This document shows, one piece after another, positions 5,772 to 64,000 of a stretch of DNA of 64,000 bases. Both the position numbers and the translations under genes were made by a program. The stretch comes from Candidatus Giovannonibacteria bacterium RIFCSPHIGHO2_01_FULL_45_24 (GTDB taxonomy: Bacteria; Patescibacteriota; Minisyncoccia; UBA11713; 2-01-FULL-45-33). The stretch lies in contig MFHE01000014.1 of assembly GCA_001778495.1 (NCBI GenBank), positions 8,409 to 72,408 of the forward strand, given 5' to 3'. The notes below the pieces were generated by a model. The model was not told the origin of the DNA. It was given only the letters and a program-made list of their open reading frames with translations, and searched no databases. Each line of letters begins with the position of its first letter. Position 1 is the stretch's first letter.

Positions 5772-5796
5772 CACTTAGACGTCCGACGTCTAAGTG
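5772..5796. repeat. Palindromic hairpin repeat, copy 1 (CACTTAGACGT-CCG-ACGTCTAAGTG)
   Basis: Perfect 11-bp arms with a 3-nt loop. It lies 3 nt from the tRNA-Arg 5' end. It supplies the last codons and the TAG stop of the 5790..6284 ORF. Confidence 0.95.
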
Positions 5797-6284
5797 TGTC
5801 TATCAGCGACAGTTGACGCCCCGAAAGAATTGGGCTTGATTACGGCGTCAAAGCCGTAGCCCTTGACCATGCCAACGACGCCGTCTATGAATTCGCGCGT
5901 GGGGCCGTTTTCGCCCACATCAATGTGAATCTGGTCGTTCCAAAAAAATTCATCTCCCAATTTTTCTTTGAGGCGCCCGCGGAGCTCCTGCGCCAAAGTT
6001 ATGGAGCAGATTGTTTCTCTATAAATCCGTTCGCGGAGAGTATTGCAACGCGTTTTTTCGGAACGCGTCCAAAAATGAATTCCGCCGTTCCCTACCCGCC
6101 AGATTGTAACGGCGGTCACAAATTGCACCTCCGACCGCGCCGCCGAATCGGTCCCCACGATGATTTTGTACCGCCGAGACGGCTTTGATTTGACGAAATC
6201 GTAAATCGCCTGAACGACTTCTTCTAAACCAAGCTCCGCTCCCAATATGTTAAAAAATTTTGAGTTGGACATTTTTTTCTGCAT
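5790..6284 (-). CDS. YkuK/DUF458-like RNase H-fold protein
   Basis: 164 aa. YKIIVGTDS...VQFVTAVTIWRVGNGG...IHIDVGENG resembles the YkuK family as I remember it. No search was run. Confidence 0.55.
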   Translation of the reverse strand: MQKKMSNSKFFNILGAELGLEEVVQAIYDFVKSKPSRRYKIIVGTDSAARSEVQFVTAVTIWRVGNGGIHFWTRSEKTRCNTLRERIYRETICSITLAQELRGRLKEKLGDEFFWNDQIHIDVGENGPTREFIDGVVGMVKGYGFDAVIKPNSFGASTVADRHT

Positions 6285-26197: not shown

Positions 26198-26226
26198 GCC
26201 ACTTAGACGTCCGACGTCTAAGTGGC
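26198..26226. repeat. Palindromic hairpin repeat, copy 2 (GCCACTTAGACGT-CCG-ACGTCTAAGTGGC)
   Basis: Perfect 13-bp arms between convergent genes. A T-run follows on the minus strand (CTTTTTATTT), so it could terminate 26234..26488. Confidence 0.95.
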
Positions 26227-50837: not shown

Positions 50838-51596
50838 TTAATTATACCCCAATATCTCCGACCAGTCTTTGAGTGAAAGATTTTCCGGGCGGGCATTTTG
50901 ATAGTTTTTCGGCAGCTTGATTTTTTTGCCGATTGAACTCCTTAGCATTTTGCGCTTTTGCTGGAAAGCCAGCTTTGCCAACGCAAGGATTCGCTCTGAC
51001 TTAGACGTCGGACGTCTAAGTGTGATTTTTATTATCGCTGAATCAACCTTCGGCGGAGGCGAGAAAAAATTTTTTGAGACGTAGCGGATTATTTCTGGTT
51101 TGGCGTATGCTTGCACGGAAAGCGCCAAAAGATTCATTTGCGGTGGCCTTGCGCAAATTCTTTCCGCGACTTCTTTTTGCACCATTAAAACCATGAGTTT
51201 TGGCCGAAACTTAGTTTCGGACAAAAACAGGCGTAAAAAACGCGAAGTTATGTAGTAGGGAATGTTGGCGACGATTTTATAAGACTTGGCGGTTAAACCG
51301 CCACTTGGCGGTTTAACCGCCTTAGCTAAAATATCTCCTTGGATAATCTCCATGTTTTTGTAATCTTTGAATTTTTCGCGCAAAACCGGAATTAAGTCGC
51401 GGTCTTTTTCCGTGGCGATTACTTTCCCGGCGCGCGCGGCCAAGATTTCGGTGAGCGAGCCCGTTCCGGGACCGACTTCCAAAACAATATCTTTTTTTGA
51501 CAGCTCCGCCGCGCGCGCCATCTCCTCCAGGATTTTTTTGTTGTTCAAAAAATACTGCCCAAGCCGCCTTCTTTTACTCCACGATAATTTCCTCAT
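50838..51596 (-). CDS. rsmA: 16S rRNA (adenine1518/1519-N6)-dimethyltransferase
   Basis: LGQYFL, the SAM motif LEVGPGTGSLT, NIPYYITS, and FQQKRKML. Contains palindrome copy 3 in-frame. Confidence 0.92.
   Translation of the reverse strand: MRKLSWSKRRRLGQYFLNNKKILEEMARAAELSKKDIVLEVGPGTGSLTEILAARAGKVIATEKDRDLIPVLREKFKDYKNMEIIQGDILAKAVKPPSGGLTAKSYKIVANIPYYITSRFLRLFLSETKFRPKLMVLMVQKEVAERICARPPQMNLLALSVQAYAKPEIIRYVSKNFFSPPPKVDSAIIKITLRRPTSKSERILALAKLAFQQKRKMLRSSIGKKIKLPKNYQNARPENLSLKDWSEILGYN
50999..51021. repeat. Palindromic hairpin repeat, copy 3 (ACTTAGACGT-CGG-ACGTCTAAGT), inside the rsmA CDS
   Basis: Perfect 10-bp arms. In inverted orientation relative to copies 1 and 2. Translated within RsmA as ..LRRPTSKS.. 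Confidence 0.95.
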
Positions 51597-59474: not shown

Positions 59475-61583
59475 TTATTTTCTGCGGGGTTTTGGCTGAA
59501 GCTCTTGCACCGCTTTGATTGAAAGATTCACTCTGCCCTGGTCGTCAATCCCGACGACTTTTACTTTCACTTCGTCTCCGGGCGCGACAACATCCGTAAC
59601 CTGGTTAACGCGAAAAGGCGCGAGCTCGGAGATGTGCACCAAGCCCTCCTGCTTTGGGCCGATTTCAACCATCGCACCGAACGGGAAGACGCGCGTGACT
59701 TTGCCTGTGAACGTTTCGCCGACTTCAAATTCTTTTGTCAGCATTGTGATTTTTTCTTCGGCCGCCCTCAAGCTTTCCTGGTTCGGCGAGGTGATAAAAA
59801 TCGTGCCGTCCTGCTCAATGTCTATTTCCGCGCCGGTTTCCGCCACGATTGATTGGATCATTTTGCCTCCCGGCCCGATGACATCGCGGATTTTGTCCGG
59901 ATTTATATGCATAGTCAAAATCCGCGGCGCGTAAGGAGAGAGCTCATCGCGGTGTTTGGGGAGTTCCTTTGTGACGACGTCCAAAATCCGGAGCCGCGCC
60001 TCGCGCGCCTGCAAAAACGCCTCCTCAATAATTTTTAATGGTATCCCGTCCACTTTCACATCCATTTGGACCGCGGTGATACCGCTACGCGTCCCGGCAA
60101 CCTTAAAATCCATGTCGCCGTGATGGTCTTCCGGGCCCTGGATATCGGTAAGGATTTTATATCTCGCTCCGCTCAACATCAGCCCCATAGCGATTCCCGA
60201 AACCGGCGCTTTTATGGGGACTCCCGCATCCATCAGCGCCAATGCGCCGGCTGTGACTGAGCCCATTGAGCTTGAGCCGTTGGATGATAGCGTCTCGGAA
60301 ACCACGCGAATGGTGTAAGGGAAAATTTCCACGGGAGGAATCACGGCTAAAAGCGCTTTTTCTCCCAAAGCGCCGTGGCCTATGTCGCGCCTTGCCGGGC
60401 CCCTCATTGGCTTGATTTCCCCGACCGAGAACGGCGGAAAATTATAGTGGTGCATGAATCTTTTTTTGGCGCGCACCTCCATGCCCTCAATAAGCTGGAC
60501 GTCCGAAGGCGCGCCTAAGGTGGCGACTGAAAGAATATGCGTCTCGCCTCTGTAAAAAACTCCGGAGCCGTGCGTTCGCGGCAAGACCCCAGCTTTTGCG
60601 AAAAGCGGGCGCAAATCTTTTACTCCGCGCCCGTCAGGCCTCCTCTCTTTTTCTATGATATTTTTATGCACAATATCATTAATCGCGTCTTCAAAGAGAG
60701 AATCGGCAATGTTATGCGGAGTATCCGCGAAATTTTCTTCGCACTCTTCCATCCACTGCCTTTTTAATTCGTTCATCGCTTCGTAGCGGTTGAGTTTTTC
60801 TTTTATATAAATTGTCTTTTCCAGCTTCGGCGCGATTTTGTTCCGAAATTCAGCTTTCATGTCGGCAGGCGCCTCGGCGAGCGTAATTTCCGCCTTCTCT
60901 GCGCCGATTTCTTTTATGATTTTATTCTGGAATTCGCAAATCCTATCGTTTTCCGAAACCGCAAGCTCCAAAGCACGCCGCATCTCGTCTTCGGAAATCT
61001 CCCGTGCTCCCGCTTCAATCATGTTCGCCTTGTCGTCCTTGCCGCAGATTACCGTATCCAGCGCCGCTCCTTCACGGTCTTTGTAAGCTGGGTTTATGAC
61101 GAGCTTTTCGTCCACCATCCCGACCCTCACTGCGCCAATCGGCCCGGCCCAGGGGATATTTGAAGTCCCCAGCGCCAAAGAAGTCGCCAAAATCGCGAGA
61201 ATATCCGGGTCGTTGTCCTCGTCAATTGAGAGCGTAAGCACAATCACCTGCGTTTCGTTCCTGGTTTTTTGGTTAAAAAGCGGCCGGATAGAGCGGTCAA
61301 TAAGGCGCGAGACCAAAATAGCTTCGTCCGACGCCCGGCCTTCCCGGCGCATGAAGCGCGAGCCCAAAATCATTCCAGCGGCGTAAAATTTTTCTTCGTA
61401 ATCAACTGTCAAGGGGAAAAAATCAACGCCTTCGCGCATGGATTTATTTTGCACGGCGGTCGCGAGAACTACCGTCCCGCCGTATGTCACCAGACAAGAC
61501 CCGTTGGCTTGGTGCGCCAAATCGCTGAATTCGGCAGTTAAAGTTCTGCCGCCGACTTCCGTCGTAAATTTTTTAGATTGCAT
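59475..61583 (-). CDS. pnp: Polyribonucleotide nucleotidyltransferase (PNPase)
   Basis: 702 aa. Two RNase PH-like halves, a KH domain (IRDVIGPGGKMIQ), and an S1 domain (GKVTRVFPFGAMVEI). Confidence 0.96.
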   Translation of the reverse strand: MQSKKFTTEVGGRTLTAEFSDLAHQANGSCLVTYGGTVVLATAVQNKSMREGVDFFPLTVDYEEKFYAAGMILGSRFMRREGRASDEAILVSRLIDRSIRPLFNQKTRNETQVIVLTLSIDEDNDPDILAILATSLALGTSNIPWAGPIGAVRVGMVDEKLVINPAYKDREGAALDTVICGKDDKANMIEAGAREISEDEMRRALELAVSENDRICEFQNKIIKEIGAEKAEITLAEAPADMKAEFRNKIAPKLEKTIYIKEKLNRYEAMNELKRQWMEECEENFADTPHNIADSLFEDAINDIVHKNIIEKERRPDGRGVKDLRPLFAKAGVLPRTHGSGVFYRGETHILSVATLGAPSDVQLIEGMEVRAKKRFMHHYNFPPFSVGEIKPMRGPARRDIGHGALGEKALLAVIPPVEIFPYTIRVVSETLSSNGSSSMGSVTAGALALMDAGVPIKAPVSGIAMGLMLSGARYKILTDIQGPEDHHGDMDFKVAGTRSGITAVQMDVKVDGIPLKIIEEAFLQAREARLRILDVVTKELPKHRDELSPYAPRILTMHINPDKIRDVIGPGGKMIQSIVAETGAEIDIEQDGTIFITSPNQESLRAAEEKITMLTKEFEVGETFTGKVTRVFPFGAMVEIGPKQEGLVHISELAPFRVNQVTDVVAPGDEVKVKVVGIDDQGRVNLSIKAVQELQPKPRRK

Positions 61584-61706
61584 AAAATTGCTTGAGGTGA
61601 TCTCCGGATTTTAGCTCTTCGACAAGAGGAGCTACCTATCCAAAGACCACCGATTATTAATTTGTAATAACTGGATATTATTCTTTTAGTTTGACAATGT
61701 CAAGCT

Positions 61707-61735
61707 GTCCGGAAATTCCGGCGGCTTTTTTTATT
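61707..61735 (+). terminator. Plus-strand intrinsic terminator, copy 1 of a 29-nt exact repeat
   Basis: GTCCGGAAATTCCGGCGGCTTTTTTTATT. The hairpin AGCTG-T-CCGG AAATT CCGG-CGGCT is followed by a T-run. No annotated plus-strand gene lies upstream. Confidence 0.55.
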
Positions 61736-61757
61736 CATTTTTGATAGTGCGTTTGGG

Positions 61758-61997
61758 TTATTTTACCGAAAACGCGATATCTGATTTTTTGGTGAATTCT
61801 TTGATGGCTTTAAGCCCCGCTCGGAAATTATCAAAATTAAACTCATAGAAATTAATGCGGGCAATTTTGCCGTTTTCGTCGTAGTCAATGACAACATTGC
61901 CGCTGATGTCTGAATCAACACTTTTTGTTTTGCCCAGCTCTATGCTCATTACTTGGCTTTCTTTGTCGTATGAAATTTTTGGTTTTGATTTGCTCAT
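61758..61997 (-). CDS. DUF2283-like small protein (putative antitoxin partner)
   Basis: YDKESQVMSIELGK...VVIDYDENGKIARINFYE matches the DUF2283 pattern. 4-nt overlap with the upstream gene. Confidence 0.6.
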   Translation of the reverse strand: MSKSKPKISYDKESQVMSIELGKTKSVDSDISGNVVIDYDENGKIARINFYEFNFDNFRAGLKAIKEFTKKSDIAFSVK

Positions 61998-62236
61998 AAA
62001 TATTTTTTAACTTGCGAGGTATCAATAATCGTAATAATTTTTAAACGATTTTTTACTCTCTCTGCGACTACGATTAACAATCTTTTATCTCCGGCATACA
62101 ATTTTTTAAACATGATTTTGTCTTTTTCGTCATACAATACTTTGTTCGGATGCAAAATCGCGCTTTCTAACAGCTTTTCCGAAATTCGGCGCTCCGCCAT
62201 CCGTTCCTTGGCATGCCGGGTCAGTTCATAATCCAT
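61994..62236 (-). CDS. DUF4258-like small protein (putative toxin partner)
   Basis: LTRHAKERMAERRISEKLLESAI...LLIVVAE...IITII pattern. Confidence 0.6.
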   Translation of the reverse strand: MDYELTRHAKERMAERRISEKLLESAILHPNKVLYDEKDKIMFKKLYAGDKRLLIVVAERVKNRLKIITIIDTSQVKKYL

Positions 62237-62280
62237 ATCATTTGCTTTAATGATAATTTACCCACCCCAAAATGTCACTA

Positions 62281-62309
62281 TTGACAAGATTTTGAATTGG
62301 GTGTATGCT
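62281..62309 (+). promoter_or_regulatory. Sigma-70-like promoter (TTGACA-17 nt-TGTATGCT)
   Basis: TTGACA at 62281-62286 and TATGCT at 62304-62309, preceded by TG. It drives the 62348/62411 reading frame. Confidence 0.6.
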
Positions 62310-62410
62310 TAAAACAGAAAATCTGAGAGAAGAAGGGGAGGAGATTTATGACAAATAAACGCTGCTGATCACCGCTCTATATCTGTGGCACTTGGTCATT
62401 ATTTGCGCCT

Positions 62411-62764
62411 GTGCCGGATGGCGGCACTTTAAAAATAACGGAGAGCATCGTTTATAACATACCAATCAGCCGCTGGTACGACATTTTGTTTGCCTTTCTC
62501 GCAGTAAACATTTATGGTTGGGTTTTAAGGGGTCTGCGATTGACAACCAAAGATTACATTAGCGATAACGACTTTTTCATTGGCTTTGGCGTTGGCCTTG
62601 TCGCTAGCCTTGCCGTTGGCCTTGTCGCTGGCCTTGTCGCTAGCCTTGTCGTTGGCCTTGTCGTTGGCCTTGGCGCTGGTCTTGCTTTCATAGTTAGAAC
62701 TCTGTTCTTTATGAATTTTTGGAACAAAATAGGCCATTGGCTAATAGCGAGAGACTTGAGTTAA
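62411..62764 (+). CDS. Membrane protein with a (G-L-V-A)n repeat core, possibly the 3' part of a frame interrupted by TGA
   Basis: The track ORF starts at GTG 62411 with no SD. The same frame is open from ATG 62348, which has a strong GGGGAGGAG SD. The only interruption is one TGA at 62366-62368. Confidence 0.5.
   Translation: MPDGGTLKITESIVYNIPISRWYDILFAFLAVNIYGWVLRGLRLTTKDYISDNDFFIGFGVGLVASLAVGLVAGLVASLVVGLVVGLGAGLAFIVRTLFFMNFWNKIGHWLIARDLS
62579..62686 (+). repeat. About nine tandem copies of a 12-nt unit (consensus GYTGGCCTTGTC)
   Basis: Read directly. The units begin at 62579 and recur every 12 nt through 62675 (62591, 62603, 62615 and so on). They encode GLVA-type tetrapeptides. Confidence 0.9.
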
Positions 62765-62789
62765 TTAAAGAAAGCAATTTTTTATAGCC

Positions 62790-62818
62790 GTCCGGAAATT
62801 CCGGCGGCTTTTTTTATT
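62790..62818 (+). terminator. Plus-strand intrinsic terminator, copy 2 of the 29-nt exact repeat
   Basis: Identical to 61707-61735. It lies 26 nt after the stop of 62411..62764. Confidence 0.7.
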
Positions 62819-62831
62819 TCGTAACTCCCCC

Positions 62832-62858
62832 AACCCCCTCTTACCCTAAGAGGGGGTT
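62832..62858. repeat. Hairpin repeat family 2, copy A (AACCCCCTCTTA-CCC-TAAGAGGGGGTT)
   Basis: Perfect 12-bp stem with a 3-nt loop. Confidence 0.9.
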
Positions 62859-62866
62859 CTGGTTGT

Positions 62867-62889
62867 TTCCCTCTTAAAGTAAGAGGGAA
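62867..62889. repeat. Hairpin repeat family 2, copy B (TTCCCTCTTA-AAG-TAAGAGGGAA)
   Basis: Perfect 10-bp stem. It lies 11 nt downstream of the DUF559 stop. Confidence 0.9.
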
Positions 62890-62900
62890 TAATGGAGTTA

Positions 62901-63266
62901 TTATTCAATTATTTTTAATTTACTTTTTATTTTCTCCAGTACCGCCTCAGTATTTTTCAGTACATCAGTATTCCAAAATCTTATCACTTTTATGTCTTTG
63001 TCGCGCAAATAACTGGTTCTTTCGCGGTCATAAATTTTTTGATCAGTTTCCGTGTGCCCACCGCCGTCTAGTTCAATAGCCAATCGCGAATCGGGACAGT
63101 AAAAATCCAAAATATAAGGTCCAACGCTATACTGTCTTAGAAATTTAATTCCATAGAATCTTTTATTGCGTAAGTATTTCCAAAGTAATCGTTCAGAATC
63201 TGTTTCAGATTTTCTAAGCTCTTTTCGTCGAGATTTTAGAGTTTGATTATTGTAAACAAATTTCAT
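62901..63266 (-). CDS. DUF559 (Vsr-like) endonuclease-domain protein
   Basis: SERLLWKYLRNKRFYGIKFLRQYSVGPYILDFYCPDSRLAIELDGGGH...IRFWNTDVL. Confidence 0.8.
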   Translation of the reverse strand: MKFVYNNQTLKSRRKELRKSETDSERLLWKYLRNKRFYGIKFLRQYSVGPYILDFYCPDSRLAIELDGGGHTETDQKIYDRERTSYLRDKDIKVIRFWNTDVLKNTEAVLEKIKSKLKIIE

Positions 63267-63280
63267 TCTTCGCTTCGGTT

Positions 63281-63303
63281 CCCCCTCTTAATGTAAGAGG
63301 GGG
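63281..63303. repeat. Hairpin repeat family 2, copy C (CCCCCTCTTA-ATG-TAAGAGGGGG)
   Basis: Perfect 10-bp stem. It lies 15 nt upstream of the DUF559 start. Confidence 0.9.
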
Positions 63304-63313
63304 CTAGGGGGCG

Positions 63314-63820
63314 TTATTTCTTTATTATGTATTTCCCCGGCTCCTCCCCGAGGTCAATAAATTCATCGCAGATTTCTTTGAGTTTTCCCGACGTTGAGCG
63401 GCCGAAAGCAATAATCTCAACTCTCCGCCCTTGATTTTTTAAATATTCAACTAAGGGTATGAGATCGCCGTCGCCACAGGCGATTACAATCGTGTCCACA
63501 ATCTCCGCCGTGCGGATGGCATCCACAGCAAGCCCCACGTCCCAGTCCGCCTTTTTCGCCCCGCCAAAAAATTCCTGCAGGTCTTTTTCGCGCGTCTCAA
63601 TGCCAAGCTTAATGAGCGCCTCAAAAAACGGCTTCTCCTCACCCGTTTTTGTGCGGATGACATATCCGAAAGCGCGGATGAGCTGCCGCCCGCCAATGGC
63701 CGTTTGAAGCAGGTTTTTAAAATTTACTCTTCCGCCGAAAAGACTCCGCGCGGAGTGGTAAAGGTTCTGCGCGTCTATAAAGACCGCGACGCGCTGATTT
63801 TTATGTTTAATGTCAGGCAT
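63314..63820 (-). CDS. NYN-domain (LabA/DUF88-like) predicted RNase
   Basis: RVAVFIDAQNLYHSAR, DVGLAVDA, IVIACGDGDLIPLV. Confidence 0.8.
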   Translation of the reverse strand: MPDIKHKNQRVAVFIDAQNLYHSARSLFGGRVNFKNLLQTAIGGRQLIRAFGYVIRTKTGEEKPFFEALIKLGIETREKDLQEFFGGAKKADWDVGLAVDAIRTAEIVDTIVIACGDGDLIPLVEYLKNQGRRVEIIAFGRSTSGKLKEICDEFIDLGEEPGKYIIKK

Positions 63821-63912
63821 GGGGATAATACTAATCTACAAATCTTACACGAATAATACGAATGGTGAATATTTGTGATTTGTGGCATTCGAATATCATT
63901 CGTTGATTTGCA

Positions 63913-64000
63913 TTACTTGCGTAAGCCGAGTTTTTTAATCAGTTTTTCGTAGGACGCTTTGTCTTTTTTGGAAAGATACTCCAGAAATTTTTTTCTTTTG
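63913..64000 (-). CDS. rpsO: 30S ribosomal protein S15, C-terminal end (CDS continues past the right edge)
   Basis: The reverse complement reads ..KRKKFLEYLSKKDKASYEKLIKKLGLRK*, the S15 C-terminal pattern. TAA at 63915-63913. Confidence 0.8.
   Translation of the reverse strand, partial: KRKKFLEYLSKKDKASYEKLIKKLGLRK

Follow-up and report, generated by a model that had tools for sequence, protein, structure and literature searches.

Genes for small nucleases that travel with their own hairpin-forming repeats are known from two nuclease families, the HUH-type RAYT proteins that accompany repetitive extragenic palindromes (REPs) and the GIY-YIG nucleases of the NTS–Ssn systems. In the latter, the single-domain GIY-YIG nuclease Ssn has hairpin repeats of its own on its flanks, which co-vary with it and which it was shown to cut as single-stranded DNA (PMC11893778). 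Hairpins are also found at Vsr-like free-standing homing endonuclease genes: in 15 of 16 cases a 5′ hairpin sequesters the ribosome-binding site (RBS), and the hairpin persists where the gene has been lost (PMC2677866). Here we describe a locus in a 64-kb stretch of DNA (64,000 nucleotides; hereafter, the window) from Candidatus Giovannonibacteria bacterium RIFCSPHIGHO2_01_FULL_45_24 (contig MFHE01000014.1, positions 8,409 to 72,408), where a gene for a Vsr-like nuclease of the family DUF559 is enclosed by palindromic units. We tentatively read gene and hairpins as a nuclease paired with its cognate hairpin repeat, in the manner of REP–RAYT or NTS–Ssn and built on a Vsr-like/EDxHD nuclease, an interpretation that we hold as plausible rather than probable.

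No description of such an arrangement for DUF559 was found in the open-access literature. Papers on the family yielded nothing on flanking repeats (titles and abstracts), palindromes or integrons; a search on Vsr-like proteins and hairpins returned only the 5′ hairpins of Dassa 2009 (PMC2677866), and the repeat strings themselves matched only primers and unrelated sequences.

The product of the open reading frame (ORF) matched PF04480 with E = 4.3e-34 over profile positions 3–108 of 109, which bears out its identification as a Vsr-like DUF559 protein in an earlier note made from the letters of the window. A Pfam scan matched only DUF559 and MTES_1575. The protein also matched the Neisseria DUF559 structure (PDB 3HRL, E = 1.2e-29) and, weakly and at the sequence level, the profile of I-Bth0305I (3R3P, E = 0.002), while the residues of the catalytic E..D..H..D pattern (E65, D67, H71 and D80) were invariant among 40 aligned homologues. 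Libraries of defence systems gave only weak partial matches (DpdF and a methyl-directed restriction endonuclease domain) and no membership of a defence system. The family is large, with 25,922 clusters (50% identity) matching the window protein at E ≤ 1e-3, and the window holds a single DUF559 gene. In another protein, P0241 (377 aa), three stretches matched DUF559, apparently representing three tandem DUF559 domains.

The arm CCCTCTTA-NNN-TAAGAGGG forms three perfect hairpins in the window, all of them around the DUF559 ORF (62901–63266, minus strand). The pattern CCCTCTTANNNTAAGAGGG, with up to two mismatches allowed, gave three matches in the 64 kb, all within 470 bp around DUF559; the chance expectation from shuffles was 0.02, and none of 100 shuffles reached three. 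Each hairpin belongs to a larger palindromic unit, in which the inner hairpin CCCCCTCTTA-NNN-TAAGAGGGGG lies within outer arms of the form TAAC-N-CCCCC / GGGGG-N-GTTA. The features of the locus are as follows.

62822–63316, minus strand: whole module of ~495 bp, made up of the 5′ unit, the DUF559 gene and a composite 3′ unit.
63307–63316, no strand assigned: outer arm of the 5′ unit, GGGGGCGTTA on the plus strand and TAACGCCCCC in gene orientation.
63281–63303, plus-strand reading: hairpin C, CCCCCTCTTA-ATG-TAAGAGGGGG, perfect stem of 10 bp with a 3-nt loop, located upstream of the start codon of DUF559.
63267–63280, minus strand: variable 14-nt spacer from hairpin C to the DUF559 ATG.
62901–63266, minus strand: DUF559 gene, 121 aa, single-domain Vsr-like and apparently EDxHD-type PD-(D/E)XK nuclease.
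62894–62900, no strand assigned: outer arm of hairpin B, GGAGTTA on the plus strand and TAACTCC in gene orientation, directly past the stop codon.
62867–62889, plus-strand reading: hairpin B, TTCCCTCTTA-AAG-TAAGAGGGAA, 10-bp perfect stem, 11 nt past the DUF559 stop codon.
62832–62858, plus-strand reading: hairpin A, AACCCCCTCTTA-CCC-TAAGAGGGGGTT, 12-bp perfect stem.
62822–62831, no strand assigned: outer arm of hairpin A and right end of the module, TAACTCCCCC on the plus strand and GGGGGAGTTA in gene orientation.
62787–62816, no strand assigned: terminator, host context outside the module, a canonical hairpin with T/A-run common to the convergent genes.

Read in gene orientation, the left end of the module is TAACGCCCCC-TAG-CCCCCTCTTA-CAT-TAAGAGGGGG and the right end is CCCCCTCTTA-GGG-TAAGAGGGGG-TT-GGGGGAGTTA. 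Since the two ends read TAACGCCCCC... and ...GGGGGAGTTA, the outer arms at 62822–62831 and 63307–63316, which are inverted relative to each other, constitute a pair bounding the 495-bp module. The TAA within the 5′ outer arm serves the NYN gene, which lies upstream, as stop codon. The outer arm of hairpin B pairs with 62822–62828, and as single-stranded DNA hairpins B and A together, a composite of 79 nt, are predicted to adopt one three-way fold closed by TAACTCC/GGAGTTA (−25.7 kcal/mol, z = −7.7).

The earlier note had located the three perfect hairpins correctly, with their 10–12-bp stems and their CCC, AAG and ATG loops, and was also right about the 11 nt separating hairpin B from the stop codon. 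The distance from hairpin C to the start codon, given there as 15 nt, is in fact 14 nt, and the outer arms had escaped notice, only the inner hairpins being seen.

Hairpins of this kind recur at other DUF559 genes. From a profile-based scan over metagenome contigs we analyzed the best-scoring subset, 80 homologues (46–80% identity). Perfect hairpins of 8 bp or more were present within 90 nt upstream of the gene in 52 of 77 homologues (~68%) and within 110 nt downstream in 47 of 69 (~68%), and 71 of the 80 loci had at least one pyrimidine-arm hairpin in their flanks. The density of pyrimidine-arm hairpins was 2.74 per kb within 150 nt of DUF559 vs 0.27 per kb elsewhere, a 10-fold difference; for other hairpins the corresponding values were 0.48 and 0.25 per kb. 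Nearly all the hairpins at these homologues had a pyrimidine 5′ arm and a purine 3′ arm (CCCCTCTTA, CCTCCCCTTA, CCCCCTTA), and more distant DUF559 clades carried the arms CCCTCTCCC and CCTTCTCC.

The arms were also related to each other and to the protein. Upstream and downstream arms were identical at 19 of 38 loci, where 4.9 were expected and no more than 12 were reached in any of 2000 permutations, and arm similarity correlated with protein identity (Mantel r = 0.39, 0/2000 permutations), in a test that does not separate co-evolution from joint inheritance. At the end of the gene, the stop codon was the TAA of TAAC-CCCCC in 17 of 71 homologues, vs 37 of 373 background ORFs. Among IMG/VR contigs, small single-domain DUF559 genes had matched hairpins, whereas multi-domain relatives of 250–280 aa had none.

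A Desulfuromonadaceae metagenome-assembled genome (JAQUHA010000012; L049, 2757–4210) contains four tandem 220-nt repeats, each made up of a sister hairpin, the hairpin, the outer arm and, in degenerate form, the first ~20 DUF559 codons. These repeats lie upstream of an intact DUF559 gene and a type I restriction HsdR gene.

A comparison of five diverged copies (window, L015, L016, L011 and L139) indicates that gene and hairpins are both under purifying selection. In the DUF559 gene, synonymous differences amounted to 0.59–0.78 per site (saturated), with dN/dS of 0.05–0.09. The stem of hairpin C was invariant in all five copies while its loop and the adjacent spacer varied, and the 5′ outer arm (63307–63316) was likewise unchanged. 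The core stem of hairpin A was kept in L015, L016 and L139 and lost in L011; neither this stem nor the outer arms showed any variation among the copies that keep them. Hairpin B was kept in L015 and L016, and in L139 had become TCCCCCTTA-CTC-TAAGGGGGA, with both arms changed and pairing preserved. The spacer preceding the DUF559 ATG measured 14–20 nt and was different in every copy; as this stretch (14 nt in the window) differs in every orthologue, the constraint is specific to the hairpin. The 3′ hairpins were lost in L011 and must therefore be dispensable to the gene.

In a strain variant of the same species as the window (L001, ~6075–6100; JGI sample 3300025323), the left arm of hairpin B carried a C>T change producing a T·G mismatch, and the protein was identical.

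Among relatives, the DUF559 gene and its units are inherited, lost and exchanged together, as a single module of ~495 bp. In gene orientation, the order of genes in the window is rpsO, NYN, DUF559, a small membrane ORF (on the other strand), DUF4258/DUF2283 and pnp. The DUF559 gene is intergenic, between NYN and the terminator, with no intron, intein or split host gene. In L015 a copy whose protein is 85% identical, with all three hairpins and both outer arms, occurs in a second context, T2SSE–FolD–module–PAP2. The homology between the window and L015 starts at (A)TAACGCCCCC and stops at GGGGGAGTTACGAAA(A)TAAAAAA, i.e., just past the right outer arm. A second Giovannonibacteria species (L052) also had DUF559 at the FolD–PAP2 site, with a different 5′ hairpin; the FolD–PAP2 site was looked for in the window, as a second or empty site, and was not found.

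At the rpsO–pnp locus itself, the complete genome CP066687.1 (L219), whose NYN gene is 99% identical, reads rpsO–NYN–pnp without DUF559 or hairpins and with the same terminator. Another close relative (NYN 98% identical) had unrelated sequence at the site, after a TAATAACCTCCC remnant. In L160, from the same sample as L001, the NYN gene was 93% identical and the terminator was the same, whereas the DUF559 protein was only 57% identical; there, the arm ACCCCCTTA stood on both sides of the gene, bounded by AATTTCATAACCCCC and GGGGGTTATGAAATT. The terminator at 62787–62816 is kept in both the empty site (L219) and L160 and thereby identifies the host side at the right junction.

The NYN–pnp interval (window 61583–63314; L011, L016, L160, L219, L222 and L225) is a variable hot spot among Giovannonibacteria. 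It contains a type 1 DUF559 gene, a type 2 DUF559 gene, a 96-aa ORF or nothing, after which come small genes (DUF7387/HicA, DUF4258/DUF2283 or ParE-like).

The hairpin also exists as a dispersed repeat. An exact scan of species-representative genomes for CCCCTCTTANNNTAAGAGGGG returned at least 120 loci (counted as fixed 8-kb blocks), where a rough chance expectation is of the order of 10–20 (18 specified bases, 596 Gb). The matches listed, to which the genome counts given from here on refer, came from ~10 phyla and included Nitrospirota, Desulfuromonadales/Geobacter, Dehalococcoidia, many Patescibacteria, other Deltaproteobacteria, Bacteroidota, Chlamydiae and others. A typical copy reads hairpin-NN-GGGGG-N-GTTATGA. 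Outer arms were present on one side in 95 of 140 copies, on both sides in 28 (forming a ~55-nt palindrome) and on neither in 17. DUF559 was encoded within 600 nt of 11 of 107 hairpins, at 6 of 92 loci (matches with at least 600 nt on both flanks), far above chance, and it was the only gene family recurring within 300 nt of 141 hairpins at 120 genome loci.

A sister family, TAACCCCTCCC-NN-CCTCCCCTTA..., often occurs alongside the hairpin, and nested units exist. In L096, L088, L095 and L125, for instance, units are nested in or beside sister-family units of the form TAACCCCTCCC..CCTCCCCTTA..TAAGGGGAGG..GGGAGGGGTTA, giving multi-layer palindromes. The ATG of GTTATGA was considered as a general gene start and rejected, the median ORF being 14.5 codons. 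An Rfam scan of 61500–64000 at a permissive threshold gave only chance-level, miRNA-like matches (E ≥ 0.3). Searching curated phage genomes and plasmids with the unit consensus gave no real match, and units therefore seem confined to uncultured lineages.

In IMG/VR contigs, units occupy short intergenic gaps between co-directional phage-type genes. Alignment of related phage-like contigs revealed hairpin-bearing segments of 86–97 nt that were present in one contig and absent from 1–14 others, having been inserted exactly 5′ of the downstream ATG. This presence or absence among related contigs implies that the units are insertion-polymorphic on their own. Examples are the insertion at 2440–2580 of L256 (relative to L257, L293, L276, L259, L274 and L254), that at ~1900–2000 of L266 (relative to L235, L280, L287 and L275) and that at ~3450–3560 of L242 (relative to L287). 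Several inserted segments begin with GTAGTGC..., and one carries its own AGGAGG. An apparent target-site duplication (ATGA) in the L242/L287 pair vanished on exact alignment, leaving a plain insertion 5′ of ATG.

If DUF559 is indeed paired with these hairpins, the units would be the sites recognised by the nuclease, in the form of a cruciform or of a hairpin that single-stranded DNA extrudes, and DUF559 would nick or cut the folded units. The stem carries TAA/TTA at either end, some 17–19 bp from each other, a layout suggestive of two-fold recognition. Breaks at units could then provoke unit-to-unit recombination, so that a gene enclosed by two units might be moved or replaced and solitary units left behind or seeded elsewhere. 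Recombination of this type would explain why alleles have been swapped, why the module is present in some relatives and absent from others, and how the tandem partial copies in L049 arose.

In this reading the binding or cleavage of units by DUF559 and the recombination route are inferred, and several considerations weigh against the pairing. Rejoining of cut DNA is beyond PD-(D/E)XK nucleases, which are hydrolytic; the spread of units would therefore need host recombination, none of which was observed. As intact hairpins beside the gene would be substrates too, cutting would have to be restricted, for example to single-stranded DNA. Some 90% of the exact-type hairpins listed from genomes (96 of 107 with adequate flanks) had no DUF559 nearby, and neither did any of the 96 hairpin copies in 69 virus-like IMG/VR contigs, which may include non-viral DNA. 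These solitary copies imply that units persist, and apparently insert, without DUF559 in cis. The empty site holds ~85 nt of unrelated sequence in place of the module, pointing to replacement and not to clean excision. No recent transposition is documented, since the copies in the window and in L015 are anciently diverged, with saturated synonymous sites. Finally, joint inheritance, instead of co-evolving specificity, could be why arm type correlates with the protein tree.

These results also bear on the remaining claims of the earlier note. Its notion of a hairpin-bounded cassette has held up, in that gene and hairpins recur together in a second context, are absent from the site of a close relative and are seen on each side of about two thirds of the 80 homologues. 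The comparison of empty and filled sites that it proposed showed CP066687.1 to lack both gene and hairpins and L160 to have a different allele with a different hairpin pair. Conversely, the suggested link to HUH/IS200-type elements came to nothing, as nothing HUH- or IS200-like was seen and the sole associated protein is a PD-(D/E)XK nuclease. The note had further argued that the hairpins would be generic terminators or REPs if other DUF559 copies lacked them and if they were scattered independently. The second half of this turned out to be so but the first did not, given the ~68% occupancy on each side; they are not canonical terminators, having no T-run on the gene strand, but they do form a repeat family. 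Indeed, their independent scattering, with ~90% of the listed genome copies and 96/96 virus-like copies lacking a nearby DUF559, makes the hairpin a repeat family in its own right as well.

We ranked the alternative explanations in the order MITE-like units, mRNA-level hairpins, attC/Xer cassettes and plain terminators. The first, which strikes us as somewhat unlikely, is that the units are independent palindromic insertion elements, similar to miniature inverted-repeat transposable elements (MITEs) or REPs, which are moved by some other enzyme or by host processes and pile up at DUF559 genes, either because these lie in permissive hot spots or because their ATGA start and TCAT-containing end resemble the preferred insertion point; DUF559 would then have no functional link to them. 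The solitary state of most listed copies fits such elements, as does the insertion of units exactly 5′ of an ATG(A) start in phage-like contigs, where DUF559 is absent. In addition, 53 of the ~105 outer arms tallied at genome loci were followed by ATGA, and the rpsO–pnp interval is a variable hot spot that also hosts toxin–antitoxin-like pairs. However, no transposase, HUH protein or recombinase recurs near units among the loci listed, DUF559 being the only recurrent neighbour, and we know of no transposase related to the units. Passive accumulation would not be expected to produce ~68% occupancy on each side, matched arms, arms that track the protein tree and hairpins that stay invariant at saturated divergence, nor does it sit well with the multi-domain DUF559 relatives, which have no hairpins.

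We consider it unlikely that the hairpins act in mRNA, with the 5′ one sequestering a purine arm similar to the Shine–Dalgarno (SD) sequence and limiting translation of a toxic or selfish nuclease, the 3′ ones terminating or stabilising the transcript, and all of them travelling as expression signals. In its favour, the (extended) SD consensus UAAGGAGG is resembled by the purine arms TAAGAGGGGG, TAAGGGGAGG and GGGAGAGGG, and the 3′ end of 16S rRNA, which is CCUCCUUA-3′, by the pyrimidine arms (CCTCCCCTTA, CCCCCTCTTA). Such a likeness may be why different phyla tolerate sequences so much alike. Furthermore, the start codon directly followed the outer arm (GG-N-GTT, then ATG) in 24 of 78 homologues, compared to 20 of 373 background ORFs, and the units of phage-like contigs pointed to the downstream gene start in 23 cases vs 9. 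In view of the resemblance of the arms to SD and 16S rRNA sequences, and of the RBS-sequestering 5′ hairpins at 15/16 Vsr-like homing endonuclease genes (PMC2677866), some RNA-level contribution at the 5′ side is conceivable.

An mRNA function nevertheless leaves unexplained the identical hairpins on both sides of the gene, the units whose ATG opens no ORF (median 14.5 codons) and the solitary bacterial copies, whose orientation relative to genes shows no clear bias (21 vs 15 and 12 vs 14). The SD-like arms lie either ~13–14 nt or just 2 nt from the ATG, both of which are poor spacings, and on the gene strand the 3′ hairpins lack a following T-run. Among the 146 stems next to DUF559 genes, 122 were perfectly Watson–Crick paired; the 24 with a single mismatch comprised 5 T·G, 3 C·A and 16 others. 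RNA-type covariation, looked for as a G·U preference among stem mismatches, was thus absent from these 146 stems, G·U being tolerated no better than other mismatches. Watson–Crick stems with no G·T preference, together with the lack of a clear orientation bias in bacterial genomes, favor a role at the DNA level.

It is very improbable, in our opinion, that the units are attC-like sites and DUF559 a cassette, with the folded hairpin as substrate for a tyrosine recombinase (an integron integrase or the host Xer) that would insert and excise the cassette. The unit–ORF–unit geometry, with the ORF filling the gap, would agree with this, solitary units could be empty sites, and the outer arms end in ...AAC / GTT... 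as the R″/R′ boxes of attC do. A Xer-like integrase is even encoded ~1.5 kb from the module, but it stands at the same position in relatives that lack the module. Across the 200 unit/DUF559 loci L019–L218, phmmer searches with two Xer-type integrase queries found a tyrosine recombinase in just one. There were no diverse cassette arrays: DUF559 was the only ORF family recurring between nearby units in the bacterial loci listed, and the ORFs between nearby units in phage-like contigs were ordinary conserved phage-type genes. The palindromes are also near-perfect, without extrahelical bases, and TCATAAC/GTTATGA fits RYYYAAC/GTTRRRY at AAC/GTT only. The integron/Xer cassette was accordingly rejected, on the strength of the single recombinase match and of the lack of diverse cassettes between adjacent units.

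Lastly, it is scarcely credible that the hairpins are ordinary transcription terminators or chance palindromes: hairpin A did score as terminator-like on the plus strand in a simple scan, but a canonical terminator is already available 20 nt away (62787–62816), no T-run follows A, B or C on the gene (minus) strand, and the idea is refuted by the shuffle expectation (0.02 copies), by the spread of a sequence-specific family across ~10 phyla and by the hairpins at DUF559 homologues.

Some other features of the window deserve a brief description. An ORF at 62411–62764 (plus strand), without a Pfam match, contains short tandem DNA repeats (GCCTTGTCG...) at 62580–62680, which encode a repetitive G-L-V-A stretch; the public annotation calls a 70-aa ORF on the opposite strand. 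A further family, of perfect palindromes, (GC)CACTTAGACGTC-N-GACGTCTAAGTG(GC), has three scattered copies at 5772–5796, 26198–26226 and 50999–51021; it is unrelated in sequence to the DUF559 hairpins and presumably represents the 'first' hairpin family of the earlier note. A 15-bp perfect hairpin, GGCGGTTAAACCGCC-ACTT-GGCGGTTTAACCGCC, lies at 51288–51321, inside or beside long ORFs.

A more general proposal, which for the time being seems doubtful, is that single-domain DUF559 proteins constitute a third independent class of hairpin-repeat-specific nucleases, after the HUH RAYTs and the GIY-YIG Ssn proteins. Their clades would each co-evolve with a palindromic unit of their own, bearing SD/anti-SD-mimicking arms, and the nuclease would drive insertion and exchange of the units and of its own gene, often precisely at start and stop codons, in at least ~10 bacterial phyla and in their phages. 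Such a class would provide a function for a family of >25,000 sequence clusters, and would add a third nuclease superfamily to those in which the layout of a small nuclease plus a cognate hairpin repeat has arisen. A widespread, unnamed palindromic repeat of groundwater and sediment bacteria, including the candidate phyla radiation (CPR)/Patescibacteria, and of their phages would likewise find an explanation, and, as with Ssn, structure- or sequence-specific DNA-cutting tools might follow. For DUF559, a very large family without an assigned role, the pairing with co-varying hairpins provides a concrete candidate substrate.

Set against known elements, the hairpins differ from intrinsic terminators, which combine a GC-rich hairpin with a T-run on the transcribed strand, a combination seen in none of A, B and C. 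IS200/IS605 elements have non-inverted subterminal hairpins and encode TnpA (HUH)/TnpB, whereas here the outer arms are inverted and the ORF and Pfam scan of the window found no such ORF. MITEs and Correia-type elements are, like the present units, short, palindromic, intergenic and insertion-polymorphic, and can supply expression signals to the neighbouring gene; the units differ in that no target-site duplication was demonstrated for them and in being inserted exactly 5′ of a start codon. With integron cassettes and attC sites the locus has in common a compact ORF, imperfectly conserved palindromes ending in AAC...GTT, start and stop codons inside the site and the occurrence of solitary sites, but here there is no integron integrase and there are no cassette arrays, a single ORF family is involved and the palindromes are near-perfect.

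The Vsr-like/EDxHD homing endonuclease genes (PMC2677866; I-Bth0305I, PMC3239194) share with the DUF559 gene the invariant E, D, H and D residues and probably the catalytic fold, and resemble it in being small mobile genes with a hairpin just upstream of the start and with presence or absence at a fixed site; the capacity of the hairpin to outlast gene loss is a further likeness. However, the homing genes, known from phage and marine metagenome DNA, lie in host genes, introns or inteins that they interrupt or split, and they encode extra DNA-binding regions, while the present gene is intergenic, single-domain and bordered on both sides by a dispersed repeat, and its product matches I-Bth0305I weakly (E = 0.002). 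Moreover, EDxHD homing goes with an otherwise identical empty allele, and here the empty site contains ~85 nt of unrelated sequence.

In their layout, homologue-specific repeats and dispersed solitary copies, the DUF559 loci parallel REP–RAYT and, more closely, NTS–Ssn. In REP–RAYT, too, a single gene is flanked by dispersed palindromic repeats of the genome, and the repeat type co-varies with the protein clade. The differences are that RAYTs have a HUH/Y1 domain, which is not among the Pfam matches here, and repeats with a GTAG head, which is absent from the repeats here; that the copy number is very low in our case (3 in 64 kb, all at the gene); and that the cut-and-rejoin chemistry of RAYTs is beyond a hydrolytic nuclease such as DUF559. 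As for NTS/SRM–Ssn (Nat Commun 2025, PMC11893778), the nuclease there is of the GIY-YIG type, whereas ours is PD-(D/E)XK/Vsr-like, with no GIY-YIG domain detected by Pfam. The repeats are unrelated in sequence, those at DUF559 being pyrimidine/purine palindromes with SD-like arms and a second, outer arm pair, and cutting of the repeats, proven for Ssn, is proposed for DUF559. In both systems, however, hairpin-forming repeats lie on either side of a small gene for a single-domain nuclease, these repeats are homologue-specific, co-vary with the nuclease and are also scattered elsewhere, and the repeat–gene–repeat layout resembles that of an insertion sequence.

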